Below are positions 2,921 to 38,998 of a stretch of DNA of 64,000 bases, one piece after another (position 1 is the stretch's first letter; the number at the start of each line of letters is the position of its first letter). Source of the DNA: Patescibacteria group bacterium. Its GTDB lineage: Bacteria > Patescibacteriota > UBA1384 > UBA12157 > JAENIV01. Where the stretch lies: contig JBEKTP010000006.1 of NCBI GenBank assembly GCA_049515915.1, positions 4,865 to 68,864 on the forward strand, written 5' to 3'. The notes under the pieces were generated by a model. That model saw only the letters and a program-made list of their open reading frames with translations, searched no databases and had not been told where the DNA came from. The position numbers and the translations under genes are program-made.

Positions 2921-3730
2921 TTGAAATATATTCTCATTGCTTTGCTGAATGCCATTTACGGATTAATGACCTTGCAAATGTTGACCAAAGATACGCCAGG
3001 TTATTATATTATCTTTGTCATCGCGATCGTTTTAGCCTTCCTGGGTTTAGCCGGCATCGTTTTATACATCATAATGCTCGTTTCCAACGCTCGTCATCAA
3101 CCCCCCAGTACCGAGTTAATTAAAAATTGGTTTCAGTTTACAAAAAACATCGATATTGTCTTAATCATTGGTCTCCTTTTTAGAGCTTTTATCCTGCAGC
3201 CATATATCGTCGATGGAAATTCGATGGAGACTAATTTCCACAACAACGAATACGTTTTAGTCGATCAAATCACTTATCATTTCAGAGCCCCCCAACACGA
3301 AGAAACGATCGTCTTTCATCCCCCCGTTGATCCAAGTCTAAATTATATTAAAAGAATCATTGGCTTACCTGGCGATACGGTCGCCATTTCAAACAACATC
3401 GTCACCGTTAATGGCCATGTGCTGACTGAGAACTATATTTACCCCGGCAGTACTACCGAGACTTCCCAACCAAACTTTAGCGTTACTTTAAAATCCAACC
3501 AATATTTTGTCATGGGTGATAACCGCGATCATTCTTCAGATTCCCGAGAATGGGGAGTGGTTCCTAAGGAAAATATTGTTGGCCGAGCCTGGTTTGTCGT
3601 TTACCCGACAAAATATTTTGGGCTGGTCAAAAACCCAACCTTTAATTTAATGACTATGTCTTCCCCTTCGGCTATCCTTAATTCAATTTCATCCCGGTTC
3701 TCTTTGAATGCCCTTGTAAAATATGCTTGA
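2921..3730 (+). CDS. lepB: Signal peptidase I
   Basis: N-terminal TM segments, catalytic Ser in VDGNSMETN, Lys in YIKRIIGLPGD, GDNRDHSSDSREWG box. Annotated start may be too far upstream and the 3' end overlaps the next gene. Confidence 0.8.
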   Translation: MKYILIALLNAIYGLMTLQMLTKDTPGYYIIFVIAIVLAFLGLAGIVLYIIMLVSNARHQPPSTELIKNWFQFTKNIDIVLIIGLLFRAFILQPYIVDGNSMETNFHNNEYVLVDQITYHFRAPQHEETIVFHPPVDPSLNYIKRIIGLPGDTVAISNNIVTVNGHVLTENYIYPGSTTETSQPNFSVTLKSNQYFVMGDNRDHSSDSREWGVVPKENIVGRAWFVVYPTKYFGLVKNPTFNLMTMSSPSAILNSISSRFSLNALVKYA

Positions 3731-4331
3731 CCTCATTATCGCTAATTTGCGGAAAATCTTTATAGAATTGTCCGACGGCATAAAATTTCGGCTCAACAAT
3801 CAAAGTGACCACGGCATCAACTTTTTTTTGTAATTGGGCTAAGGTTGAGGGCGAAATCGCCGGTGTGGCAACAATGATTTGACGCGGTTTCAAAGTTTTT
3901 AATTCCATCACCGCAACTTGAACAGTCAGACCGGTGGCCACACCGTCGTCAACTAAAAAAACAGTTTTTCCCACTAGCGGAATTGCTGGTTTCTTGCCCC
4001 CGTACAGATTCTTGCGGCGGATAATTTCTCTTCGCTCTTTAATGGCTTGGGTAGAAATATAATAAGGATTGAATTCTTCGTTTGGGTTCAAAATAATTTC
4101 ATGTTCTGAAACGGCGCCAATAGCATATTCCGGATTAGCCGGATGGCCAATTTTTCGGGTCACGATTATATCGAGCGGCAAACTAAGTTTTTCGGCAATT
4201 TCTGCCCCGACAACCACTCCTCCTCTTGGCAAAGCTAAAACTATTCCGTTTAATATTTTCGGCATTTTATTTTGAAGTTCTTCGGCCAGCTTGCGGCCGG
4301 CTTGAATTCGATCCCGAAACATTATGACCAT
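3678..4331 (-). CDS. Phosphoribosyltransferase-domain protein
   Basis: PRPP-binding motif VFLVDDGVATGLT, ~217 aa. Confidence 0.6.
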   Translation of the reverse strand: MVIMFRDRIQAGRKLAEELQNKMPKILNGIVLALPRGGVVVGAEIAEKLSLPLDIIVTRKIGHPANPEYAIGAVSEHEIILNPNEEFNPYYISTQAIKERREIIRRKNLYGGKKPAIPLVGKTVFLVDDGVATGLTVQVAVMELKTLKPRQIIVATPAISPSTLAQLQKKVDAVVTLIVEPKFYAVGQFYKDFPQISDNEVKHILQGHSKRTGMKLN

Positions 4332-4381
4332 AACGATAAATATTTTATCACTTCTGGTATAATAAGAATAGAGAAAAATAC

Positions 4382-6577
4382 ATGAAAGAATGTTATTTAT
4401 ACAAAAAGGCTGGCGATTATGCCGACTGCCAGGCCTGCAACCACCGCTGTCATATTTCGCCGTTTAGGCGGGGAATTTGCGGTGTTCGAGAAAATCACGA
4501 CGGCAAACTCTACACTTTAATTTACGGACGGATTATTGCGGAAAATATTGATCCCATCGAAAAAAAACCTTTATACCATTTTCTGCCTGGCACCAAAAGC
4601 CTCTCCATCGCCTCGGCCGGATGTAATTTAAAGTGCCCCTGGTGCTTTCCTCCGAAAACTAAAATCCTAACCAATCATGGATTAATGGATATTGAAAACA
4701 TTTGCAAAAATCCTCATAACATATCAGTTATCTCCCATACAGGTCAAAAAAGAAAGATTAAAACTGTCTTTCAAAGATCGTATAATGGCAAATTAATAAA
4801 AATTAAAGCTGGCTTCCTCCCTCTAACTCTAAATTGTACCCCTAATCATCAAATTTATTTTGCTGAAAAACCTTTTAAAGATAAGGTTAAAAAGATATCC
4901 GCCGAAAATCTCATAAGTAATCGACATTATCTAGCGATCCCTAAGAAACATTCATTTTCACAAAATATTGTTCTGGACAATAAAGCAATCTTAGAGCAAG
5001 TATCAAATAAATTTAGGATATCTCACAAAATATCTTTTGGAGATACCAAAAAAATTCTTGAACTTTCTAAAAATCAAACGTCAAAACAAATAGGACGAAT
5101 TTTTAATCTTCATCCTGCTTATGTTAGAACTTTACGATCCAAATTGAATAAAGAGAGTTTAACAAAAGAAGATTATTACTGGGCAAATAATGTTTTAATT
5201 GAAAAAGATTCGCGTATACATTTCAAAACCGAAAAAAAACCTTATCTATCACGTTTTTTTGAATTAGACGAAAATTTGGCTTTTCTTTTAGGTTACTATT
5301 GTGCTGAAGGAAATGTTACCCAATGTAAGAATCGTCCAAATTCATATTCTTTACATTTCTCTCCGGGCAAACACGAAATAAAAAATATACAAATTATTAA
5401 AGAAAAATTTATAAAAGTGTTTGGTTTACCGCTTAAAACAACTCAACGTCGCACTACTATAGAATTAAGTAACAGTAAAACTTCTATCGCTATTATCTTT
5501 AAAATTTTATGCGGCCATAATGCAAAATTTAAAAAAGTTCCTCAAGAACTTTTTCGAGTACATAAGACGGTACTTCAAGCATTCTTAGAAGGATATATTA
5601 TAGGCGATGGTTATCACGATAAGCAAGGATTAACTGTAAGCAATACTGTGTCTAAAGAATTGGCTTTAGGATTATATGCACTTTGGTCAAAATTAGGATA
5701 CTTGCCTAGATTTTATGAATGGCATCCAAAACCTTTCAAAATAATTGAAAACCGAAAAGTCAATCAATCTATCCTTTACTATGTAAAAGTCTGGCAAGGT
5801 AAAAGAAAAATAAAATCTCGATACTACGAAGATGATAAATTTTTTTATGTCCCAATATTAAACGTTAAAAGAAAACAATATTCAGGGCTAGTATATAATT
5901 TAGAAATCGAAAAAGACCATTCTTACTTGGCTAATTTTGTTAGTGTCGGTAATTGTCAAAACTGGGATATTTCTCAATGTACCAAAGGAAATATTGACCG
6001 GGCGGAGTTTACTAACACTCTTGGGATTGAAATGGAGCCGGAACAAATTATCGAACACGCCAAGAAAGCTAAAACTCCTTCGATTTCCTATACTTATACC
6101 GAACCAACTATTTTTTTGGAATTTGCTTTGGATACGATGAAACTGGCCAAAAAAGCTAAAATTAAAAATGTTTGGGTCTCGAATGGTTATATGACCAAAG
6201 AAACTTTAGATTTAATCAACCCATATTTAGATGCCATCAATGTCGACTTAAAAGGTTTCAGCGAAGAAAACTATTTAAAATATTCCGGCGGCAAACTTCA
6301 GCCGGTTTTAGATAATATTCGCGATATCTATAAACGCGGCATTCATCTTGAAGTAACAACCTTAATTATTCCCGGTATCAATGACGATAAAAAACAATTA
6401 TCCGATATCGCGGCATTCTTGGTCTCAATCTCGCCTAAAATCCCTTGGCATATTTCACGATTCTTCCCAGCTTATAAAATGACTGATACGCCGATCACGC
6501 CCATCGAGACTCTCAAACTCGCTGAGGCCCTTGGCAAAAAGGCTGGTTTAAAGTATATTCATTTGGGAAATATATGA
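4382..6577 (+). CDS. AmmeMemoRadiSam-system radical SAM enzyme interrupted by an intein
   Basis: N-extein ...SIASAGCNLKCPW and C-extein CQNWDISQ... splice to CNLKCPWCQNW, a Cx3Cx2C motif. The remainder matches PFL-activase-like rSAM. Followed in operon by AMMECR1 and a LigB/MEMO-type gene. Confidence 0.8.
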   Translation: MKECYLYKKAGDYADCQACNHRCHISPFRRGICGVRENHDGKLYTLIYGRIIAENIDPIEKKPLYHFLPGTKSLSIASAGCNLKCPWCFPPKTKILTNHGLMDIENICKNPHNISVISHTGQKRKIKTVFQRSYNGKLIKIKAGFLPLTLNCTPNHQIYFAEKPFKDKVKKISAENLISNRHYLAIPKKHSFSQNIVLDNKAILEQVSNKFRISHKISFGDTKKILELSKNQTSKQIGRIFNLHPAYVRTLRSKLNKESLTKEDYYWANNVLIEKDSRIHFKTEKKPYLSRFFELDENLAFLLGYYCAEGNVTQCKNRPNSYSLHFSPGKHEIKNIQIIKEKFIKVFGLPLKTTQRRTTIELSNSKTSIAIIFKILCGHNAKFKKVPQELFRVHKTVLQAFLEGYIIGDGYHDKQGLTVSNTVSKELALGLYALWSKLGYLPRFYEWHPKPFKIIENRKVNQSILYYVKVWQGKRKIKSRYYEDDKFFYVPILNVKRKQYSGLVYNLEIEKDHSYLANFVSVGNCQNWDISQCTKGNIDRAEFTNTLGIEMEPEQIIEHAKKAKTPSISYTYTEPTIFLEFALDTMKLAKKAKIKNVWVSNGYMTKETLDLINPYLDAINVDLKGFSEENYLKYSGGKLQPVLDNIRDIYKRGIHLEVTTLIIPGINDDKKQLSDIAAFLVSISPKIPWHISRFFPAYKMTDTPITPIETLKLAEALGKKAGLKYIHLGNI
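4643..5953 (+). mobile_element. Intein (437 aa) with LAGLIDADG-type homing endonuclease domain
   Basis: Block A CFPPKTKILTNHGL starts at Cys (nt 4643). LAGLIDADG-like motifs LLGYYCAEGN and LEGYIIGDGYHD are present. It ends ...FVSVGN (Asn, nt 5951-5953) followed by Cys+1. Length is a multiple of 3. Confidence 0.75.
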
Positions 6578-7404
6578 ACTTGAATACCCGTATCGGAAAG
6601 TTAAAATTAAAAAATCCGATTATTTTAGCTTCGGGTACTTTTGACCGTGGTATTACCACAAAAATTGACATCAATAAATTAGGCGGATTGGTCACGAAAA
6701 CCATTACCCTAAAACCACGTGAAGGTAACCCTCTCCCTCATATTTTTAAAACACGCTACGGCTGGTTAAATAGTGTGGGGTTAAAAAATATGGGGTTAAA
6801 AAAATACCTGACAGAAGAATTGCCATTTTGGAAAAAGTATAACACCCAGATTTTCACCAGTATCGGCGGCGAGAATACCAGAGAATATATCAAAATTGCC
6901 AAATCATTGGAGAGTTTAGTATCTTCTCTCGAAGTCAATGTTTCCTGCCCTAATGTTGATGGATTATTTTTTGGTGCCGATCCTAGAAAACTCAAGAATC
7001 TTATTTCAGCAATCCGTAAAAATTTTAAAGGATTTATCGCGGTTAAATTATCCCCTAATGTTTCGGATATTATCTTACCGGCAAAAGTGGCCATGGCTGG
7101 CGGAGCCGATGCGCTCATCATCGCCAATACTTATTTGGGCTTAGAGCTTATTAAGTCAAAACCGGTCTTCCAGCAAGTTTTCGCCGGATATTCCGGCGGA
7201 GCGGTCAAACCCTTAACCATGAGGCTCGTCTGGCAAACAAGCCACGTTCTAAAATGCCCAGTCATTGCCAGTGGCGGAGTGGAAAACACCCAAGACGTCA
7301 TTGATTATTTGACCGCTGGCGCCAAGGCTGTCCAAATCGGCTCCGCTAACTTTTTAAATCCAAAGGTTTCTGTTAAGATAGTTGATGAATTACGAAGGAG
7401 ATAA
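6574..7404 (+). CDS. Class-1 dihydroorotate dehydrogenase-family TIM-barrel flavoprotein (PyrD-like)
   Basis: LKNPIILASGTFDRG N-terminus, active-site NVSCPNV, GG..N motifs. ATGA overlaps the stop of the rSAM gene. Confidence 0.65.
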   Translation: MNLNTRIGKLKLKNPIILASGTFDRGITTKIDINKLGGLVTKTITLKPREGNPLPHIFKTRYGWLNSVGLKNMGLKKYLTEELPFWKKYNTQIFTSIGGENTREYIKIAKSLESLVSSLEVNVSCPNVDGLFFGADPRKLKNLISAIRKNFKGFIAVKLSPNVSDIILPAKVAMAGGADALIIANTYLGLELIKSKPVFQQVFAGYSGGAVKPLTMRLVWQTSHVLKCPVIASGGVENTQDVIDYLTAGAKAVQIGSANFLNPKVSVKIVDELRRR

Positions 7405-8202
7405 ATGTCTTTAAATTTTGCCGCTATTTCGCCTCACCCGCCCATCATTATTCCCGAAATCGGCAGTAAAGAAGATTTGCAAAAAGTGTCACAGACTATT
7501 TTCGGCATGAGAAAACTGGCCAATCATTTTAGAGAAGCGGAAATAGACACGTTGGTCGTAATTTCGCCGCACTCCCTGATTTATCCCGACCGATTCAATA
7601 TTTGCGGCATGAAAAAACTCTTCGGCACCTTCGCCTCGTTCGGCACCCCAGATTTAATGATGGAGTTCAGTAATGATATTGATTTCGCTATTGAGTTGGA
7701 TACGGCCGCCAAAAAAAATAGTGTGGAAACCCTGCTCTACAATAATGACGGTGAGTTCTACGAGCTTGATCACGGCACCATGGTGCCGCTTTACTACCTT
7801 ACTCAAAATCAAGAATCGCCTTTAAAAATCGTTCCGGTAACCTACTCCGATCTGCCGCGTGCGGATCACTTTTCGTTCGGTCAAATTATTCGCGATGTCG
7901 CCGTTAAATATAATGGCCGAGTGGGCGTTTTGGCCTCCGGCGATTTATCTCACCGGCTCATTCAAAGCCCAGCTGGAAAAGAATTTGACGATAAACTCAT
8001 TCAAAACATAAAGGCCAGTGATACCAAGACAATTCTTTATTACGATGAAGATTTCGTCGAAAAAGCCGGGGAATGTGGCTATCGTTCGATTTTGATTTTG
8101 CTTGGCCTCTTAGACGGGTTGAAAACGAAACCTGAGGTTATTTCCTACGAAGGGCCGTTCGGCGTCGGTTATTTAGTGGCTAATTATATTTTAAAGGATT
8201 AA
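7405..8202 (+). CDS. LigB/MEMO1-superfamily (class III extradiol dioxygenase-like) protein, putative AmmeMemoRadiSam partner B
   Basis: 265 aa, AISPHPP...SPHS...His-rich LigB-like signature. Zero-gap operon position between the rSAM/DHOD genes and AMMECR1. Confidence 0.5.
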   Translation: MSLNFAAISPHPPIIIPEIGSKEDLQKVSQTIFGMRKLANHFREAEIDTLVVISPHSLIYPDRFNICGMKKLFGTFASFGTPDLMMEFSNDIDFAIELDTAAKKNSVETLLYNNDGEFYELDHGTMVPLYYLTQNQESPLKIVPVTYSDLPRADHFSFGQIIRDVAVKYNGRVGVLASGDLSHRLIQSPAGKEFDDKLIQNIKASDTKTILYYDEDFVEKAGECGYRSILILLGLLDGLKTKPEVISYEGPFGVGYLVANYILKD

Positions 8203-8206
8203 AAAA

Positions 8207-8713
8207 ATGAACCCGCCTGTTTCAACGGCTAAAAAGGCTATCGAAAATTACGTCAATTCTGGCCAAATCATTACGGTCGAAAACCCAGATCACCATCGAG
8301 CCGGCTGTTTCGTTTCAATTCATAAAAAGTCTTCCGGCGAACTTCGCGGTTGTATTGGCACAATTTTACCGGCTTGTAAAAATTTGTCTTTGGAAATTAT
8401 CAACAATGCCATTTCGGCCTGCCAAGATCCGCGTTTCGAGCCCATTACCCAAAAAGAGCTTGACGATTTGAATATTTCAGTTGATATTTTATCCGAGCCC
8501 GAGCCAATTGAATCGACGAAATCACTCGATCCCAAAAAATACGGCGTCATTGTTAAATCAAAAGATGGCAGAACCGGCCTGTTATTACCCGACTTGGATG
8601 GAATCGATGACGCGATGTATCAAATTGCCATCGCCCGCGAAAAAGCCGGCATTAGCGTCAACGAACCAATTTATCTTTATCGATTTACCGTCGAAAGATT
8701 TAAGGAACTATAA
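8207..8713 (+). CDS. AMMECR1-domain protein (AmmeMemoRadiSam system protein A)
   Basis: Hallmark ELRGCIGT motif, 168 aa. Confidence 0.85.
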   Translation: MNPPVSTAKKAIENYVNSGQIITVENPDHHRAGCFVSIHKKSSGELRGCIGTILPACKNLSLEIINNAISACQDPRFEPITQKELDDLNISVDILSEPEPIESTKSLDPKKYGVIVKSKDGRTGLLLPDLDGIDDAMYQIAIAREKAGISVNEPIYLYRFTVERFKEL

Positions 8714-10605: not shown

Positions 10606-11766
10606 ATGCGAATTGGTATTTTTAGTGAATGCTACAATCCCGTTCTCAATGGCGTCGTCGTTTCGATTAATACCTTCAAGGCCGAACTCGAAAAACGCGG
10701 TTACGAATTTTATATTTTTACCACGGCCAGTTTAAATAAACAAGAAAATGATCCTCGTATTATTCGATACCCCATCATGCTGCCGTTTAAATCTAAAGGT
10801 GGAAAATACCCGATTGCTTGGCCGCAAAACGCCAAAAAGACCGCTAAAAAGATTGCTCAGCTCAATTTAGATCTAATTCATAGTCAGCATTTATTGGGGC
10901 TGGGTCAAACCGGCCGAAAGACCGCTACAATTCTGGGAATTCCTAAAGTTTTAACCTATCACACCTTACTGGCGGAATACGCCCACTATGTGCCGCTTTT
11001 CCCCGGCCTCGCCAAGCGGTATTTAATCCGCCAAAGCCGTAATATTTGCAACCGCTACGATCAAATTATCACTCCTTCGCCCTCAATGGCTAAAGTTTTA
11101 AGCAAGTACGGCGTCGTCAAACCGATCGAATCTATTGCGACCGGCGTTAACTTAGATGAATATGACCAGCCGTTTAGCCGAGAAGAATTAAAAGCCCGAT
11201 GGTCAGTCCCCACGGATAAAAAATTACTTCTTTATGTCAGCCGAATTGCCAAAGAAAAAAATATTGATTTACTGTTGGAAGCGGTTAAATCATTGACCAA
11301 GAAACGCTCAGATTTTCATCTTTTAATGATCGGGGGTGGACCGGAGCTTAATACCTACAAAAAAATGGTTCAGAATAGCAATCTACGCTCGGTCGTAACT
11401 TTTACTAATATGCAGCCGAAAAACGAAACGGTTAAATATTTTGGCGCGGCGGACATTTTCACCTTTCCTTCCTACACTGAAACTCAAGGCATTGTGATCA
11501 CCGAAGCGATGGCCGCTGGCGTTCCAGCGGTCGCCATTAATAAAATGGGGCCTTCCAATATTATTAAAAACGGCGTGGACGGATATTTAACCGACTTGAA
11601 TGTTGACGAATTTACTGATAGAATTAATCGCTTGCTCAATAACGACGAACTTCGAAAAAAAATGGGGCAAGCGGCGAAAGCTAACGCCCAAGAATATTCA
11701 ACTAAAGCTTGTGCCGATAAAATGGAAGAGTTATATGTCAAAGTCACGCATCATCACCGTTCCTAA
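10606..11766 (+). CDS. Glycosyltransferase family 4
   Basis: GT-B fold with ETQGIVITEAMAAGVPAV (the E-X7-E region), 386 aa. Confidence 0.75.
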   Translation: MRIGIFSECYNPVLNGVVVSINTFKAELEKRGYEFYIFTTASLNKQENDPRIIRYPIMLPFKSKGGKYPIAWPQNAKKTAKKIAQLNLDLIHSQHLLGLGQTGRKTATILGIPKVLTYHTLLAEYAHYVPLFPGLAKRYLIRQSRNICNRYDQIITPSPSMAKVLSKYGVVKPIESIATGVNLDEYDQPFSREELKARWSVPTDKKLLLYVSRIAKEKNIDLLLEAVKSLTKKRSDFHLLMIGGGPELNTYKKMVQNSNLRSVVTFTNMQPKNETVKYFGAADIFTFPSYTETQGIVITEAMAAGVPAVAINKMGPSNIIKNGVDGYLTDLNVDEFTDRINRLLNNDELRKKMGQAAKANAQEYSTKACADKMEELYVKVTHHHRS

Positions 11767-13099
11767 CCCATTTCTTAAGGAAAAAACTGAGAAAATCAGT
11801 TCTCTTGACCGTGAAGTCCAAATTCAAATTAAAGAAATGATTGCCACCTTACGTCGCGAAGGCGGCATTGGCTTGGCCGCCAACCAGCTCGGTTACAAAA
11901 ACCAAGTTATTGTGATTGAATTTATCGACCCCGAAGAAAAAAATCACCTTCCCTTAACGATCTTTATTAACCCGGAAATTGTCAAATATTCCGGCGAAAC
12001 CGAATGTTTCGACGAGGGCTGTCTTTCGGTTCCCAAAATTGAATTTGAGCTCGAGCGGCCAGCCAAACTTAAACTCAAATATGAAGATGAGCACGGCCAC
12101 AAACTTAAAATCGCGCCTAAAGGACTTTTGGCCCGAATTTTGCAACACGAGATTGATCATTTAAATGGAATTTTATTTATCGAACGAGCGCGGGCTCAAC
12201 TTTTCAAAAATTACCCCGAGCTTAAAAACACTCAAATTGCTTTTTTGGGTTCGGGTGAATTCGGCGCGGTCATTTGCGAAGGTCTAATCCATTTGGGCGT
12301 AAATTTAAAAATTTATACCGAAGCGGCAAAAGCGGCCGGTCGAGGAAAACTTTTGCAATCAACGCCAGTCGCCGATCGGGCAAAAAAATTTGGCAAACAA
12401 TATACCGAAATTACCGACATCAAAAAGGCAGTGATAGACGATTGCGACCTTTTAATCTGCGCTGATTTTGGCCAAATATTACCCAAACAAATCTTAGAGA
12501 TTCCTACCATTAAGGCGATTAATATTCACCCCTCCTTGTTGCCGAAATATCAAGGACCTTCCCCGATTCAGACCGCTCTCCTACAAGGAGAAAAGGTTAC
12601 CGGAGTTTCGATTATTGAGATGACTGTAAAAATTGACGAAGGGCCAATTATCACTCAAACCGAGATTGATATTGCCGAAAACGACGATTATACCACTTTA
12701 AGAGATAAACTGGCCACCGTCGGCATTAAACTTCTGGCAAAAAATTTGGGCGAAATTGTTCGCGGCAACCTCGAAGGAAATCCTCAACCCAAAAACTTTA
12801 TGATCAAAACCCGTAAATTTGCTAAAGCGGACGGTGAAATTTCGTGGAATAAAACCCCTCCAGAAATCGAACGTCAAATCAGAGCTTTCCAACCATGGCC
12901 TGGCACATACACCCTCATTGACAACCAGAGACTGTTAATTCACGCCGTCCATATGGAAAAAAAACGGTTGGTTTTAGATTCCGTCCAGCTTGAAGGCAAA
13001 ACACCAACCGATTTCGGCAGTTTCCTTCGCGGCTGGCACGGTCAGAAACCGAAATGGTTAAGTAAAATCAAAATCAATAAAAATGTCTCCACTGGTTGA
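11735..13099 (+). CDS. Peptide deformylase fused to methionyl-tRNA formyltransferase (Def-Fmt single polypeptide)
   Basis: Def motifs GIGLAANQLG, EGCLSVP, QHEIDHLNG, followed in the same frame by Fmt motifs IAFLGSGEFG and NIHPSLLPKYQGPSPIQ. Start chosen at MSKSRIITVPNPF, since the ORF-track start at 11600 overlaps the GT4 gene. Confidence 0.75.
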   Translation: MSKSRIITVPNPFLKEKTEKISSLDREVQIQIKEMIATLRREGGIGLAANQLGYKNQVIVIEFIDPEEKNHLPLTIFINPEIVKYSGETECFDEGCLSVPKIEFELERPAKLKLKYEDEHGHKLKIAPKGLLARILQHEIDHLNGILFIERARAQLFKNYPELKNTQIAFLGSGEFGAVICEGLIHLGVNLKIYTEAAKAAGRGKLLQSTPVADRAKKFGKQYTEITDIKKAVIDDCDLLICADFGQILPKQILEIPTIKAINIHPSLLPKYQGPSPIQTALLQGEKVTGVSIIEMTVKIDEGPIITQTEIDIAENDDYTTLRDKLATVGIKLLAKNLGEIVRGNLEGNPQPKNFMIKTRKFAKADGEISWNKTPPEIERQIRAFQPWPGTYTLIDNQRLLIHAVHMEKKRLVLDSVQLEGKTPTDFGSFLRGWHGQKPKWLSKIKINKNVSTG

Positions 13100-19825: not shown

Positions 19826-21352
19826 TTACCGATTTTCGAATAATCCTTTCTGATTATCAATTTCTTCCGCTTCGGCTTCTTTGTGGTGCGAATGATACCA
19901 ACCGGTTGGCAATTTCGGCTGTTTGCCTAAAAGTAGTTCATTGATAGTTAAAATTTGAATTTTGGGAAATTCAGTTGGCAAATATTCGACAGAAAAATCT
20001 CCTACGGCAAATGCTTCCTCTTTCATTGGTTGGGTTGGCTCATCGAGAGTTATAAAGACGCCGGCGTCGGCGCGCTCTCTCTCAATATCGCCTTTTAGTG
20101 TGGCAATATCACCACGATTGATATGCCCACTTTTAACTTGAACAATTGCCTTGCCGATTTCCTGACTGTCGTGATTCAGTTTCTTATAAAAAGTAATTAT
20201 TCCGTCAACGCCTTTGTCAGCGCCGCCCATATTTTCTTGGGTTTTGTTTTGCGCCGGCATAGCGTTGACTAAACTTAAAGCCCAATATTCAAATTCGAAA
20301 CGATTTTTTCGCGCCAATTCTTTAGCACCCGACAAATCTTTCGGCAAACCGTCAACATTGATTTTGATATTCTTATTGGCAAACTTATTTTGTAAGCGAG
20401 ATTTGATTAGGTTAATTGCAAGTGTAGTGATATCAATTCCTATCCATCTACGATTTAATTTCTCCGCCACCGCGACGGTTGTCCCACAACCGCAAAACGG
20501 ATCCAAAACCCAATCACCTTCATTCGAAGAAGCTTTTATAATCCGTTCTAATAACGCCTCGGGTTTTTGCGTCGGGTAGCCGAGACGTTCTTTTGCCGTC
20601 GAACCAATTGGTGGCATTTGCCAAACATCACCGATTTTTACACCTCTGTTTTCGTCTTCCAAATAAACTTTGTATCTTTTTCCCTTTACCGTGTGCCAGC
20701 GCCATCTTTTCCCTTGATCGTCAACATATCTATAATCTTTCTTGATCCAATCTCCGTAAGGTTCCCACTGACTGTTAAAAGTAAAGGTATCAGATTTCGA
20801 ATAAAAAAGAATGATGTCGTGAAGCCGCTGGAATCTACCAGAAGACGCTGTCCAGCGTCTGTAATGCCATACGATTTCATTCTGAATATTTTCTTTTCCA
20901 AAAATAACATCCATTACAATTTTTAAATAATGGCTGGCAGTTGGGTCGCAATGAAGATAAATAGAACCGGTGGATTTTAAAACGCGTTTTAATTCAATCA
21001 GACGAATGGTCATCATCGTTAAATAGGCCAAAATATCGTTTTTGCCAACCATTTTTTCGAATGCCAGCATCAAATCCGAGATATTTTGATTGATTTTGGT
21101 TTGAGAAGTTTTAACTCCGACTAATTCTGCAAAAACATGTTCGGCTTCGTGCGTCCAATGCCAAGAATCTTCAAACGCTTGCACTTGCGCCGGACTATCA
21201 ACTAAGCCTTCTTTATAAAGAATGTTGTAGTTTCGATTGGAATTAAACGGCGGATCGAGATAAATTAAATCGATTGATTCGCTGGGAATTTTTTCGCGAA
21301 GAATCTCTAAATTATCACCGAAATACAAGGTTCGGTTGGTTAATTCATTCAT
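19826..21352 (-). CDS. Beta-class DNA methyltransferase (N4-cytosine/N6-adenine) with C-terminal Mrr-like PD-(D/E)xK domain
   Basis: Motif IV IYLDPPFNSN comes before motif I VLDPFCGCGTTVAVA, the beta-class order. C-terminal ~140 aa has ADKGVDGIITF...AIVQVKSGHI, resembling the Mrr catalytic signature. Confidence 0.8.
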   Translation of the reverse strand: MNELTNRTLYFGDNLEILREKIPSESIDLIYLDPPFNSNRNYNILYKEGLVDSPAQVQAFEDSWHWTHEAEHVFAELVGVKTSQTKINQNISDLMLAFEKMVGKNDILAYLTMMTIRLIELKRVLKSTGSIYLHCDPTASHYLKIVMDVIFGKENIQNEIVWHYRRWTASSGRFQRLHDIILFYSKSDTFTFNSQWEPYGDWIKKDYRYVDDQGKRWRWHTVKGKRYKVYLEDENRGVKIGDVWQMPPIGSTAKERLGYPTQKPEALLERIIKASSNEGDWVLDPFCGCGTTVAVAEKLNRRWIGIDITTLAINLIKSRLQNKFANKNIKINVDGLPKDLSGAKELARKNRFEFEYWALSLVNAMPAQNKTQENMGGADKGVDGIITFYKKLNHDSQEIGKAIVQVKSGHINRGDIATLKGDIERERADAGVFITLDEPTQPMKEEAFAVGDFSVEYLPTEFPKIQILTINELLLGKQPKLPTGWYHSHHKEAEAEEIDNQKGLFENR

Positions 21353-21592: not shown

Positions 21593-24500
21593 CTAATAAT
21601 TAGCGGTAGAGATATAGTAAATAATCGTCTGATAAGTACTCGCACTTTGAGCCGTCGGCGCCACAACTTTGTAAGTTAATGTATAAATATCATCGGCGTT
21701 GCCGGTCGAGCCATTGACGGCCGCTTCGTGGTCGGCAACAATATCGCCGGGTGCAGTTTGGGAAAAAGCGCAAAATTTGGTTGAGCTTGTCCATTTATCC
21801 ACCCCGCCGATATCGGGGTCGTTTGAAGTATAACCAAAACCTGTCCCGCTCCAAATCGATGGCGAAGCATATGAACTGGCATAGTTAGGAATTGTTAATG
21901 CGCCGTTGACAATCGAAGTTAATAAACCGTTGGCATAAGCTCGAACCGAATATCCGCCGGCGGCGTTAGTGACAGTGTGGACGGCCGTCGTTTTGGTATC
22001 GGTCCAGAAATTGCCGGCGTTGAGATTGGAAAATGTCACGGTATTGGAATCAAGGGAAAATGATAAAGTCGGCACCACCTGCTGAGCAGAGGCGCTAACG
22101 GCATTTCCGATATTGCCGGCATTATCAAAAGCTTTCACGGAAAAATAATAGTTAATACTTGTTTGTAAATTTAAGCCGGTGGCCGTGGCGGAAGTTCCCG
22201 TGCCGTTGTCGGTCCAAGAGGCGATATCAGAACCGCCAGCGGTGGTACCAACCGCATATTGATATTTCAAAAGCCCCGAAACCGTCGCATCAAAACCGCT
22301 CCAGGTCGCACCAAGCTGCGTTAGCGAGCCGGTGTTAGCACTATTAGTAACGCTGCCGCCGGTCGGGGCGGTGGCGTCAACTTTGAGATCAACCGTTGCT
22401 TGAACTCCAAAATAAGCTGGACTAGCTGATGTTGCACCATGGTTATCAATTCCATAGACTCGCCACCAATAACCGGTCGACGAGTCTGACAAAGTCATCG
22501 AAGCAGAACCAACCGCATAGGTTCCGCCACTTTGGCCGACTTGATAAGCAAAAGTTGTGCCTGAAGAGGAAAGTGTACCGTAGGTGTAATCCAAAACCAA
22601 ATGAGTAAAGTTGGAATCTGTATTGTCGATTTGGATTTCATATTTAACAGTGTCGCCGGTATCGGGATCGGTAATATTGAAGCCGAACCAAGGTTGGTTA
22701 ACATTGGTCCAAGCACTCTCGGCAATATTATTGGCTCCGGAAGTTGTTCCCTGGGTTAAACTTGTTGGCGTATTGGGCGGATGGTTGGTCACAAACCAAT
22801 TGGTATTGTTGCCGTCGTCGGTATAATGAGTGGGATTAATGGGAGAAGCGGCTTGATTGTTAGAATTTGCCGGCGTAACGTAATCAACGCTCCAAGCTGT
22901 CGGATTAATATTCCATTGACTCGAGCCTGAACCGCCATTCCGCCCTAAGGTAATGAGTTGTCCTGAAGCACCAGTACAGGTCCAAGTTCCGGAAACGGTT
23001 GTGGTTGAACCGGAATCAAAATTGATTGTTCTTGCTGTCGTCGCCGTAGCTGTAAAATTGTAAAAAGATGTATTGCCTGAAACAATCTGGGTCGAACCGC
23101 CAGCGCCAGTAAAAGTCACCGTGCCGCCGGAATTATTGGTAAAGGTGCCAGAATTTATCCAGTTACCGGCTAAATCAATACTATATTTATTGGTCGCGTT
23201 ATTATTTAAAGTGGCGTTAGTATTACTAAGAGTCAAAGTGCCGGTCATAGCCGCCGAATTAGCGGCCGTTAAATTACCGGTCAAAGAATAAGTTGTTGTC
23301 GAAGTCGGCGTCAAAGTTAAATTATTGTAGGCGGCTGTCGTAATATTGGTTCCTGTGCCCGAGCCGGTATAAACTACCGTTGAGCTGGTCGTCGTCAATG
23401 TGCCTGATTTAGTAAAAGGTGTGCCGGTGCCGGCAATAGTCAAAGTTTTACTAGTAATGTCTAAAGTATTGTTAATATAAAGATTCAGCGTCGTTAATTT
23501 CATATTAGTTTGAGCTGAAATCGCCATGCCGGACGAACCGTTAATTGCCACTGTACCGAGATCTTGAAGACTGGCAGTGTTATCGTAAAAATTATCCGTG
23601 CCGGCAGGACCATCGAAAGTCGTGGTGCCGCCTTTGGTAAAAGTAGTTCCCGAAGCTAACGTAAAAGAGCCGGCGTAAGTTTGATTTTGACTATTGCAGT
23701 TATAGATACCAGTCTGAAGATTAAAAGCACCATTGGTATCAACTTGACCGGTAATGGTTGCCGTATTGCCGCCACCAACATTAATGGTTAAATTATTAAA
23801 ATTAGTGACGCCGATTTGCGGCGCGACGCCGGTAAAAATCACCGTACCGGTGGCGGTAAAAGTGCCAGCAGATTTAACCCATGTCGAAGCGCCGGTGCCA
23901 GTTACCGTAATCGTATTGCCGTTATCGGCCAGAGTTCCACCTGATCCGGTTTGATTGTATTGGCCAATCGAAATCGGCGTCGATGATGTCAGTGTCGTCG
24001 TGCCACTGGTAGAAGAATAATTTAATGCGCCCGTCACAGTAAAAGCAGCATTAGATGTCATAGTTGCCGTACCAGAAACAGTTAAGCTGCTGCCGATGGC
24101 AGTTACGCCAGTCATGGTTTTAGCACTGGTACCGCTTAAAGTCAGATTATAATAAGAAGTTGGATTGACTGTTTGAACTCCGCTAGCATTATAGTTGACC
24201 GTATTACTTGCAGCTGATGCGGTAAAAGTGGCCACGCCAATCGAACTGCCGCCAAAATTTAAAGTGCCGGTCGTGCCGTTGCCATCTGTCCAAGTGCTAC
24301 CCGACCCGCCGGAAGCAAGTGTTGTGCTGATAGTTACCGTGCCGCTATTGGTGACTGATGCGCCCGCACCAATGGTTGTATTTGGCATCGTCGTTGTTGT
24401 TGAACCGCTAATTGTTTTTCCTGAACCGGTAAAAGTATGAATGCCGGTAGAACTGGTCCAAGTAGTGGCGTTATTAGTTAAACTGCCACCAAAGTTAATA

Positions 24501-26410
24501 GGCTGGGCCGCCGATTCGTTCCACACAGTTCCCGAGTTGAGCGTCACATCCCCGGTAAATGTCGCACTCCCAGAAGCACTACTAAAAGTTATATTTAGAC
24601 TAATCGATAAGGTACCACCCACCGAAAAAACATAGGCGCCGTTGCTTAAGCCGCCGCTGGAGATTGTGAGGTTTCCGCTGACCGACAAATTGTTGCCAGT
24701 GGTAAGTGTTCCACCGTTAATAGTTAAAGTACCGGCAGTCATCGATGCCGCAGTCGTCGCCGTACAAGTGCCACTAACCGTGAAAGTGCCGCTAATCGTC
24801 GAAACATTAGTTAAAGTTTTGGCACCGCTAGATTGAATCTTTAGATTGTAATAAGTGATGCTGGGGAAAACTGTTTGGGCTCCGGCATAGCCGTAAACAA
24901 CAGTGTTACCGGAAGCCGAGGCAGTTAAAGTGGTGATGCCCATCGCGCCAGTAAAGTTATCGTTTAGTATTCCGGTACCAGCATTAGTCCAACCGCCGGA
25001 ACCAGTTAGTGAGCTAGTAAAAGTGGCTGTCCCGTTGTTAGTAACGGTCACACCGGATGCGACTGTCGCGACACCACTGGCGCTGATCGGAACTGTTGTC
25101 GAGGCTCCAGAAGTGGAAATACTAAAACCGCTGGTATTATTAAAGTTAACCGTCACAAAAGCTAAAGTCGCTGTGCTGGTACCGGTAATTGATGTTGCCG
25201 CCGGCGACGCGGGAGTATTGAAGTTGATGGTGCTGCCAGTAAACGTGATCGGGGTTGCCGCAGTCGTGTTAATTACCCAGTTTCCGTAAAAATTATGCGT
25301 GTAAGAACCAGCCGTAAAGGTTGCCGCGCCACCAATCGTAAAATTACCGTTAACTGTTAGAGCACCGCCCGCTGATTTTGCCCCTGCCGTGCCATTAATC
25401 TGCAAGTTCCAATAGGCCGGGGTGTTTGAAACGGTTTGAGTCGTGTTGGCCGCATAATTAACCGTCGTTCCGTTAGCGATATTTCTCGTCGCAAAGGCTG
25501 GCCAGGTGGTCGCTCCCCCCGTCCCTCCGAGGGTAAATGTTCCGGAAGTTAAGTTGAGAGTTCCCGTGTCGGTTATTTGATAGCCGCCATCGGCAAAAAT
25601 ACTGCTTGACGTCACATCACCAATGGTTAAAGTTACAATCGTCGCCGTGCTGGTTAAGGTCACCCCGGCCGGATTGTTTGATTTTAAAACATTATAGGTG
25701 GTATAACCTCTTGCTGTTTCGGCCGAGGTGCCCTTAAAATTCATGACGCTTCCGGTTGTTGTTGTCAATACTCCGGCGATCGAACCGGAGCCAAAGTTGC
25801 CCGTAAGATTGACTGTCCCGGCGCCAGAAAAAACCAACTGGGCATTACCGGTCGTGCCACCAAAAGTGATATCACTGGACGCCCCGCCTGCCGCCCCAAC
25901 GTTCAGTGTGCCGGTGCTGATGCTCACCTGGCCGACTCTTGAAGATGTACCACCGTTAATGGTCACGGTCCCGGCAGCTGACGCAGAGCCCGTACTTAAC
26001 GTATACGCACCAATAGCAACCGCCGTTCCGGAGCTGGAGGTTGGTGCGGTTATGGTTATTGTACCGATTGGATTAGTAACGCTCGCGGTCAGTGTGACAG
26101 TTATATTGGCATTAATAACAACGTTATCAAAGTTTGAGCTTGACCAACCGGGATAAGCGGAGGTATTACTTTCACAAGCACTTCCCCAAGTTGCCGGGGC
26201 GTTCCAGTTGCCGCTGACCGAGGCAGTACAAGTATAAGTGGTCGCTTGAGCTTTAAAAAACGAGGTAAAATTAATCAGTGAAAAAACGAGAATACCCAAA
26301 ACAACTAAGGCAATCGTGCCCCAAGTGAGCCGCGTTTTATTTTTCGGCTTACGAAAAGTCTCACGAACTCTTAAATAGATTCCGTCAATTTTTCTTATCG
26401 GATTAGACAT
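21593..26410 (-). CDS. Giant (1605 aa) membrane-anchored Thr/Gly/Ser/Asn-rich surface protein with beta-helix-like repeats and C-terminal FN3/Ig-like domains
   Basis: N-terminal TM anchor LTWGTIALVVLGILVFSLI, then >1000 aa of degenerate TGT/SGT-rich repeats, then Ig/FN3-like segments. Almost no charged residues. Confidence 0.7.
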   Translation of the reverse strand: MSNPIRKIDGIYLRVRETFRKPKNKTRLTWGTIALVVLGILVFSLINFTSFFKAQATTYTCTASVSGNWNAPATWGSACESNTSAYPGWSSSNFDNVVINANITVTLTASVTNPIGTITITAPTSSSGTAVAIGAYTLSTGSASAAGTVTINGGTSSRVGQVSISTGTLNVGAAGGASSDITFGGTTGNAQLVFSGAGTVNLTGNFGSGSIAGVLTTTTGSVMNFKGTSAETARGYTTYNVLKSNNPAGVTLTSTATIVTLTIGDVTSSSIFADGGYQITDTGTLNLTSGTFTLGGTGGATTWPAFATRNIANGTTVNYAANTTQTVSNTPAYWNLQINGTAGAKSAGGALTVNGNFTIGGAATFTAGSYTHNFYGNWVINTTAATPITFTGSTINFNTPASPAATSITGTSTATLAFVTVNFNNTSGFSISTSGASTTVPISASGVATVASGVTVTNNGTATFTSSLTGSGGWTNAGTGILNDNFTGAMGITTLTASASGNTVVYGYAGAQTVFPSITYYNLKIQSSGAKTLTNVSTISGTFTVSGTCTATTAASMTAGTLTINGGTLTTGNNLSVSGNLTISSGGLSNGAYVFSVGGTLSISLNITFSSASGSATFTGDVTLNSGTVWNESAAQPINFGGSLTNNATTWTSSTGIHTFTGSGKTISGSTTTTMPNTTIGAGASVTNSGTVTISTTLASGGSGSTWTDGNGTTGTLNFGGSSIGVATFTASAASNTVNYNASGVQTVNPTSYYNLTLSGTSAKTMTGVTAIGSSLTVSGTATMTSNAAFTVTGALNYSSTSGTTTLTSSTPISIGQYNQTGSGGTLADNGNTITVTGTGASTWVKSAGTFTATGTVIFTGVAPQIGVTNFNNLTINVGGGNTATITGQVDTNGAFNLQTGIYNCNSQNQTYAGSFTLASGTTFTKGGTTTFDGPAGTDNFYDNTASLQDLGTVAINGSSGMAISAQTNMKLTTLNLYINNTLDITSKTLTIAGTGTPFTKSGTLTTTSSTVVYTGSGTGTNITTAAYNNLTLTPTSTTTYSLTGNLTAANSAAMTGTLTLSNTNATLNNNATNKYSIDLAGNWINSGTFTNNSGGTVTFTGAGGSTQIVSGNTSFYNFTATATTARTINFDSGSTTTVSGTWTCTGASGQLITLGRNGGSGSSQWNINPTAWSVDYVTPANSNNQAASPINPTHYTDDGNNTNWFVTNHPPNTPTSLTQGTTSGANNIAESAWTNVNQPWFGFNITDPDTGDTVKYEIQIDNTDSNFTHLVLDYTYGTLSSSGTTFAYQVGQSGGTYAVGSASMTLSDSSTGYWWRVYGIDNHGATSASPAYFGVQATVDLKVDATAPTGGSVTNSANTGSLTQLGATWSGFDATVSGLLKYQYAVGTTAGGSDIASWTDNGTGTSATATGLNLQTSINYYFSVKAFDNAGNIGNAVSASAQQVVPTLSFSLDSNTVTFSNLNAGNFWTDTKTTAVHTVTNAAGGYSVRAYANGLLTSIVNGALTIPNYASSYASPSIWSGTGFGYTSNDPDIGGVDKWTSSTKFCAFSQTAPGDIVADHEAAVNGSTGNADDIYTLTYKVVAPTAQSASTYQTIIYYISTANY

Positions 26411-38510: not shown

Positions 38511-38998
38511 CCTATAAGTATCAAAAAATGACCCAACGAGTGGATCATTTTTTGGTGGAGCTAGGGAGAATTGCACTCCCGTCCAAAAAACGATTTGACA
38601 ATCTTTGACAAGCATAGATACAGTCCTTGTTATCTTAAGAGTTATACCAGGACGATCTCTAACTCTCGAAGGTCAACTAATGTCGCCATTTCCGACCGGT
38701 CAACCAACGCATCGGAATGACGTGCTTAACCCCGGCTTACGCTAGAGCTAAGGCAGGTGCTAAATTTGGTTTAGCGTTTAGATTTTGCCACGATTTTTTA
38801 CGAGAATGCGTAGCCTACTCGACTTGAAATTGTCAAACGGGTTTTTTGTCGAATCTATATAGCCCCGTTACCTAAACCCTACCATATTTTCAGTCGGAAG
38901 TCAAGCAAATAAACATCAGCTTGACATTAAAGATAGGTTTTGATATTTTCAAATGCCTGACAGATCGTTGCTATTCTGATTCGTAAGGAGATTCGCCG

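Follow-up and report, generated by a model that had tools for sequence, protein, structure and literature searches.

The stretch of DNA analyzed here, called the window in what follows, spans 64,000 nucleotides (nt) of contig JBEKTP010000006.1 (assembly GCA_049515915.1) from a Patescibacteria group bacterium. On its forward strand, an open reading frame (ORF) at nt 4382-6577, unbroken over 2.2 kb, encodes a 731-amino acid (aa) protein that combines a radical S-adenosylmethionine (SAM) enzyme of the AmmeMemoRadiSam family with an in-frame insert of 437 aa. This insert is very probably a canonical class 1 intein bearing a LAGLIDADG homing endonuclease, lodged between W87 and the third cysteine of the CX3CX2C iron-sulfur cluster motif (residue numbers are those of the 731-aa precursor). 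An identical protein has been deposited as MGA2667019.1 under the name "MAG: radical SAM protein [Patescibacteria group bacterium]". An earlier note, made from the DNA letters without database searches, had placed an intein within this ORF, and the boundaries it gave are exact to the nucleotide (residues 88-524, Table 1). The intein starts with CFPPKTK and ends with FVSVGN, and its joined flanks read ...AGCNLKCPW/CQNWDIS..., the slash standing here and below for the insertion point. The cysteine that follows the intein (Cys+1) is itself the third cluster ligand, a claim of the same note that is borne out by the boundaries, by the TIGR04337 profile, and by gap-free orthologs.

The protein expected after splicing comprises 294 aa, in which the cluster-motif ligands C81, C85, and C525 appear in the same form as in intein-less orthologs. 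It matches the AmmeMemoRadiSam profile TIGR04337 with 279.1 bits (cut-off 220) in one stretch, residues 9-294 aligning to profile positions 7-286, whereas the unspliced precursor scores 257.4 bits and its match is broken into two stretches; the family proposed for the host in the earlier note thus stands. A search with the spliced sequence returns as best full-length matches intein-less proteins exclusively, all of 293-295 aa, with more than 100 such orthologs and identities of up to 84%. When the spliced sequence is aligned by MAFFT with ten intein-less orthologs, no gap opens at the junction (CNLKCPW/CQNWDISQC against CNLRCLWCQNWDISQC), and the contiguity of the exteins across the CPWC junction, on which the intein assignment had been staked, is therefore found. 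In an AlphaFold2 (AF2) model of the whole precursor, computed from 64 homologs, the extein part is matched by Foldseek to the pyruvate formate-lyase (PFL)-activating enzyme (3cb8, E = 3e-9). The window enzyme leaves TIGR04337 positions 287-349 unmatched and does not cover the full-length profile. A truncated or decaying host gene, as a profile matched only to position 286 might suggest, was rejected, the more than 100 intein-less orthologs being of the same length. An alternative boundary, CPWC/FPPK...VGNC/QNW, would yield the same spliced product; it was rejected as chemically impossible, because the intein would then be devoid of an N-terminal nucleophile and of a C-terminal Asn. Two cysteine patterns outside the cluster motif were also observed. 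The N-terminal C16-x2-C19-x3-C23-x9-C33 group (nt 4427-4480) is invariant in 64 of 64 aligned homologs and is likely to serve AmmeMemoRadiSam enzymes as an auxiliary site for a metal or an Fe-S cluster, and a C-terminal zinc-ribbon-like tail (CPxCG...GxCxxCG), present in most other intein-bearing homologs, is absent from the window lineage (end of the ORF, window 6455-6577).

Table 1. Features of the interrupted radical SAM gene and of the genes downstream of it (window positions; HTH, helix-turn-helix)
Feature	Positions (nt)	Strand	Remarks
N-extein	4382..4642	+	Residues 1-87, ending C81-N-L-K-C85-P-W87; TIGR04337 match
Intein: Hint splicing domain, HTH-like insert, and LAGLIDADG homing endonuclease	4643..5953	+	
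Block A, CFPPKTKILTNHG	4643..4681	+	Cys88 is intein Cys1; TIGR01445 match to intein residues 1-72
Block B, LNCTPNHQIYF	4829..4861	+	TxxH is T153-P-N-H156, without variation across 64 homologs; also conserved in 112 inteins
HTH-like three-helix segment, ...TSKQIGRIFNLHPAYVRTLRSKL	5036..5146	+	Residues 219-255; AF2 helices 219-228, 234-241, 245-255
LAGLIDADG motif 1 (block C), AFLLGYYCAEGN	5279..5314	+	Acidic E309; PF14528; LLGYYCAEG conserved
Endonuclease block D, KKVP	5531..5542	+	K384 and P387 invariant
LAGLIDADG motif 2 (block E), FLEGYIIGDGYHD	5582..5620	+	Acidic D409 (YIIGDG); PF14528, PF05204; GDG conserved
Block F, LVYNLEIEKDHSYLAN	5888..5935	+	H513 conserved; N506 where KlbA and PI-PkoII have Asp
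Block G and +1 residue, FVSVGN/C	5936..5956	+	Asn524; Cys525 is +1; penultimate Gly523; TIGR01443 match, residues 504-525
C-extein and stop codon	5954..6577	+	Residues 525-731, rest of the radical SAM partial TIM barrel; PF04055; TIGR04337 profile positions 84-286
Dihydroorotate dehydrogenase-like gene (pyrD-like, class-1-type)	6574..7404	+	NF005574, 301 bits (cut-off 269)
AmmeMemoRadiSam system protein B (Memo/LigB-like)	7405..8202	+	TIGR04336, 37.3 bits (cut-off 26)
AmmeMemoRadiSam system protein A (AMMECR1)	8207..8713	+	TIGR04335, 118.7 bits (cut-off 99)

One of the intein-less orthologs (P0122, 294 aa) is encoded on a 161-kb contig, at a locus designated L001, where the gene order is that of the window: S26 signal peptidase, phosphoribosyltransferase (minus strand), radical SAM enzyme, dihydroorotate dehydrogenase (DHODH), Memo-like protein, AMMECR1, and PriA. 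The radical SAM coding sequence at this locus (885 nt) aligns without gap to the joined coding sequence of the window (885 nt), at 77% identity. Because of this synteny and of the ungapped alignment, the L001 locus is the orthologous empty site, and the sequence ...TGTAATTTTAGATGTTTGTGG/TGTCAAAACTGGGATATCTCG... that it carries is a candidate homing target.

The insert itself has the motif order of a class 1 intein (Table 1), namely Cys1, the TxxH motif, and a C-terminal Asn followed by Cys+1, within a Hint fold and with a contiguous host left after its in-frame removal. Profile searches report TIGR01445 (intein_Nterm, 24.7 bits, cut-off 24.5), TIGR01443 (intein_Cterm, 20.5 bits, cut-off 15.6), and PF14528 (LAGLIDADG_3, 39.2 bits, cut-off 22.5), so that both ends of the intein and its endonuclease are detected above the respective cut-offs. 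The LAGLIDADG-like blocks pointed out in the earlier note are indeed present, at residues 302-311 and 402-413, and fall within the PF14528 match. Conservation was read from two alignments, one of 112 inteins of the family and one of 64 full-length homologs. Across the latter, C88, T153, H156, K384, N524, C525, Q526, and N527 are invariant, and conservation reaches at least 90% for E309, D409, and H513; the first two intein residues, C1 and F2, do not vary among 12 aligned inteins and are also conserved in the 112. Between the N-terminal half of the Hint domain and the endonuclease, the HTH-like segment recognized earlier folds into three helices in the AF2 model and displays a pattern, TS.EIG...HP.YVR.LR, that is conserved in the family inteins. 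Homologs return Pfam HTH_28, HTH_38, and HTH_23 matches at this segment, and the window's own sequence reaches none of the Pfam HTH models; the segment is probably a DNA-recognition insert.

The AF2 model has a mean pLDDT of 90.6, which falls only near the two junctions. Foldseek pairs it best with PI-PkoII (2cw7, E = 6e-21, a similarity well above chance), the V-ATPase (VMA) inteins of Tli and Pho (7qss, 7qsu, 7qst), PI-SceI, and PI-PfuI, with E-values ranging from 6e-21 to 4e-11. Like the window intein, these solved structures comprise a Hint domain, a LAGLIDADG endonuclease, and an extra DNA-binding region, although the identity is only 10-18% and their hosts differ, being DNA polymerase, V-ATPase, and ribonucleotide reductase. 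By sequence, the nearest solved structures are PI-PkoII, two VMA inteins, and the Methanocaldococcus jannaschii KlbA mini-intein.

The same arrangement recurs far beyond the window. The best 120 full-length matches to the precursor are all intein-containing (~660-860 aa) and belong to Patescibacteria, DPANN archaea, Promethearchaeota, MSBL1, and Syntrophomonadaceae. In 119 of these 120 the intein follows CxxxCxx, the exception (P0086) being cut off at its N-terminus, and 110 show the ending ...N/CQN. When each GTDB species was scanned through one genome, 278 stretches encoding relatives were identified; among the best 80 loci, the insertion site was checked in the 73 whose match starts at intein residue 1, and all 73 exhibit the CX3CX2/C...N/C arrangement. 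Their hosts include Omnitrophota, Anaerolineae, Acidobacteriota, Rokubacteria, Bipolaricaulota, Steroidobacteraceae, Usitatibacter, Thermoproteota, and Heimdallarchaeota. The same-site intein therefore spans two domains, from the candidate phyla radiation (CPR), DPANN, and Asgard lineages to Chloroflexota, Acidobacteriota, and two cultured bacteria, Peristeroidobacter soli JW-3 (L070, NZ_RYEV01000003.1) and Ca. Fervidibacter sacchari PD1 (L073, NZ_CP130454.1). These last two offer tractable native hosts in which splicing, including any redox- or iron-conditional splicing, could be followed. The arrangement of the window is the usual state of a large intein family found in hundreds of genomes.

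With only the intein as query, an exhaustive HMMER search returned 5852 representatives at E <= 1e-3, 63 of them at E <= 1e-30, and the hosts were checked for the 141 newly retrieved proteins among the best 150 matches. The CX3CX2/C context is found in 36 of these 141, among them B12-binding radical SAM proteins (P0316, P0318, P0331, P0341, and P0400) and SPASM-domain proteins (P0307 and P0382). Some hosts carry more than one intein. As judged from these alignments, the data point to the cluster motif as a recurrent insertion site of one broad intein lineage across the radical SAM superfamily. Such a hot spot, shared by several subfamilies of radical SAM enzymes in Bacteria and Archaea alike, would parallel that of the ATPase P-loop. 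The window case illustrates the general rule that the codons where inteins insert are those most conserved and essential for catalysis, with the particularity here that the +1 nucleophile doubles as a cluster ligand. Viral sequences did not provide carriers: the 242 viral stretches examined hold only distant LAGLIDADG inteins, with at most 31% identity, and the 13 viral full-length matches have other hosts, none of them (0/13) with the intein at the CX3CX2/C site. All 13 of these viral inteins end with HN, unlike the window family that ends with [G/S/A/C]N. There is hence no evidence, in the viral stretches examined, of viruses carrying this intein family.

Sequence divergence separates the history of the intein from that of its host. 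The host exteins have a ratio of nonsynonymous to synonymous substitution rates (dN/dS) of ~0.05 in the comparison with L001, in which dN is 0.105 and dS is saturated, and of 0.06 in the comparison with a second locus, L083; the ratio for the intein is 0.21. The host enzyme is under strong purifying selection and is evidently needed, which suggests that the intein is removed. The GC content of the intein (29.7%) differs from that of the N- and C-exteins (45.6% and 38.0%, respectively), and a relative, L002, shows the same contrast (30.7% versus 46.1%), giving the intein a foreign-looking composition. The L083 locus (3001-5196) lies on a 542-kb contig and holds an allele 96.6% identical to that of the window in the same context, with flanks that are 95% identical. 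Between the two, the intein DNA is 97.6% identical with a dS of 0.066, as compared with 93.2% and a dS of 0.31 for the exteins; the dS of the intein is about five-fold lower (Fisher p = 1.5e-8 on synonymous counts), and the divergence of the neighbourhood is uneven. This suggests that the copy of the intein is younger than that of the host gene, by recent homing or gene conversion, although a composition effect might also explain the low dS. At a larger distance, the closest relatives of the exteins (84% identity) are devoid of an intein, and the closest intein-bearing relatives have inteins that are only 53-60% identical, a pattern suggestive of repeated gain and loss.

If we combine the conserved residues with the established chemistry of inteins, the following course of splicing and homing is the best supported. 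An N-to-S acyl shift at Cys88 would open the reaction, Cys525 (+1) would then take over the N-extein by trans-thioesterification, cyclisation of Asn524 would free the 437-aa intein, and a final S-to-N shift would create the peptide bond between W87 and the cysteine. The product would be the 294-aa enzyme with its CNLKCPWC motif restored, able to hold the 4Fe-4S cluster that cleaves SAM. At the DNA level, the element most likely spreads by homing, in which the endonuclease together with the HTH-like insert would cut intein-less alleles at the conserved sequence encoding C-x-W/CQNWDISQ, and repair of the cut allele would copy the intein in. The occupation of the same site in very distant lineages would follow from such homing, because the sequence coding for the motif is highly conserved. 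It is plausible that the enzyme cannot bind its 4Fe-4S cluster before splicing, since the third ligand and the helix that follows it are displaced by 437 residues. The precursor nevertheless still reads C81-x3-C85-x2-C88, with intein Cys1 in third place, and for this reason a metal, a cluster, or a disulfide might form at the junction before splicing.

Several points weigh against a fully canonical, active element. PF14890 (Intein_splicing) scores 32.2 bits, under its gathering threshold of 35.8, and two residues that help catalysis in many inteins are replaced: the penultimate His, common and not obligatory in class 1 inteins, is Gly523 here, and the block F Asp, which PI-PkoII and the KlbA intein both possess, is Asn506. 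The endonuclease, moreover, may have lost its activity despite intact motifs. Both substitutions are family-wide and are not due to local decay, and therefore they are probably tolerated: at the penultimate position, 107 of the 112 inteins have G (42), S (32), A (21), or C (12), and HN endings occur at only 7 of the 73 genome loci. Splicing could still be slow or conditional. An insertion that does not splice, with the radical SAM gene inactivated or the insert kept in the mature protein, is very improbable. Splicing is, to be sure, predicted from motifs and two auxiliary residues are non-canonical, but C88, N524, and C525 are all invariant, the frame is uninterrupted over the whole ORF, the exteins are under purifying selection, and the partner genes are intact. 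Besides, the radical SAM fold cannot take a 437-aa insert inside its cluster-binding loop. A chimera between an intein gene and a radical SAM gene, created by assembly or binning, is hardly conceivable. Nothing specific speaks for it beyond the metagenome-assembled source of the contig, and an assembly artefact is ruled out because the identical protein is found on 19 contigs from four sources (NCBI, JGI, ENA, and Logan); the L083 allele on its long contig and the same architecture in 73 independent genomes, some of them complete or from cultured organisms, argue in the same direction.

Two further readings would modify, rather than overturn, the proposal of a splicing and homing intein. According to one, the intein would still splice with a dead endonuclease, as a fixed and vertically inherited passenger that no longer homes. 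LAGLIDADG inteins often retain their motifs after losing activity, the PF14528 and PF05204 scores are modest here, and the presence or absence of the intein among close relatives could reflect loss instead of gain. These arguments leave such a passenger a minor chance, as the family conserves E309, D409, and K384, the dN/dS of the intein indicates that the whole element is still constrained, its low dS relative to its own exteins fits recent transfer or gene conversion, and different phyla in two domains have an intein at this site. The other reading adds a redox or metal gate to splicing, without replacing the canonical pathway: a disulfide between Cys85 and Cys88, or the binding of Cys88 to a metal or an Fe-S cluster, would stop splicing at its first step, so that the oxygen-labile enzyme would be completed only under reducing conditions. 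The junction C81-NLK-C85-PW-C88, read directly from the window, does contain a CPWC (CxxC) pair and provides the cysteine at position -3, and the loss of the penultimate His and of the block F Asp could slow splicing and ease its regulation. The site itself gives every family member both Cys-3 and Cys1; any intein located there necessarily has Cys-3, which is hence no sign of selection for regulation. Patescibacteria are mostly anaerobic or fermentative, and an oxygen switch would be less obviously useful to them. There is a precedent in Pyrococcus abyssi, where a native Cys-3:Cys1 disulfide controls the intein of MoaA, another radical SAM enzyme, and blocks its splicing until reduction (PMC3922620, PMC10663303). 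On balance, gated splicing in the window seems rather unlikely.

A broader proposition joins this gate to the hot spot, with CX3CX2/C being both a landing site throughout the superfamily (AmmeMemoRadiSam, PflX-like, B12-binding, and SPASM enzymes) and a checkpoint based on a decoy motif. Cys1 would complete a decoy CX3CX2C, and disulfide formation, metal, or Fe-S ligation would hold the precursor until the cell is reducing and iron-replete. If this were true, the inteins would provide oxygen-labile radical enzymes with a built-in post-translational oxygen and iron checkpoint, which selection would maintain in addition to selfish homing; the two parts taken jointly are quite doubtful.

Compared with known systems, the splicing and homing intein of the window comes closest to that of P. 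abyssi MoaA, with which it shares a radical SAM host, a Cys at position -3 of the N-extein, and a catalytic Cys1. The MoaA cluster motif is CX3CX2C, and the MoaA intein would thus occupy the equivalent CX3CX2/C position, as deduced from its Cys-3 and Cys1 and from this motif. The host family is different, however, and the MoaA carrier is an archaeal hyperthermophile; the P. abyssi intein did not turn up among the relatives that the sequence searches gave for the window intein. A second intein-bearing radical SAM enzyme is covered by the curated NCBIfam model NF045703, "tetraether lipid synthase Tes, intein-containing". The intein part of this model is matched by relatives that the window intein has in other radical SAM hosts, always with the +1 Cys at profile position 611, whereas the window protein does not reach the model, the host enzyme differs, and the Tes site is deduced from alignment coordinates only. 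The Mycobacterium tuberculosis SufB intein also resides within Fe-S metabolism, and its splicing is reported to respond to oxidative stress (PMC8891592). SufB, unlike the present host, is a cluster-assembly scaffold and not a cluster-using radical SAM enzyme, and its intein is not located at a CX3CX2C ligand. In the searchable literature, no account was found of inteins in AmmeMemoRadiSam enzymes or of the cluster motif as a hot spot for inteins; co-mentions in papers on a Campylobacter phage, a Nanoarchaeota genome, and T. kodakarensis were set aside as coincidental and not concerning this intein. Radical SAM inteins are already known from MoaA and NF045703, and the JGI automatic names of some homologs already read "intein/homing endonuclease"; the window intein, itself well preserved, belongs to a large family that is visible in the databases and does not represent a new mechanism. 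Its recognition matters for annotation: the deposited name is only that of a radical SAM protein, the length and the split Pfam matches could mislead the family assignment, and removing the intein gives back a normal 294-aa AmmeMemoRadiSam enzyme.

Downstream of the host gene, the AMMECR1 and Memo-like partners are both encoded within 2 kb, making the three-component system complete (Table 1). The DHODH gene sits between the radical SAM and the Memo/AMMECR1 genes, its start overlapping the radical SAM stop codon (ATGA); it occupies the equivalent place in L001 and L083 and is not there in L002. Upstream, the signal peptidase I ORF (2921-3730, plus strand) and the phosphoribosyltransferase ORF (3678-4331, minus strand) are convergent and overlap by 53 nt (3678-3730), as they also do in L001 and L083. 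Elsewhere in the window, a 499-aa ORF (11600-13099, plus strand) encodes a fusion of peptide deformylase and methionyl-tRNA formyltransferase (Pep_deformylase and Formyl_trans_N/C), and the same fusion is found in L002. On the minus strand, an ORF at 19826-21352 fuses an N6/N4 DNA methyltransferase with Mrr-type restriction endonuclease domains, and a 1605-aa ORF (21593-26410) has no Pfam match at E <= 1e-5. Lastly, a transfer-messenger RNA (tmRNA) gene (38553-38866, minus strand) specifies the tag peptide AKPNLAPALALA, and seven tRNA genes are scattered over the window.

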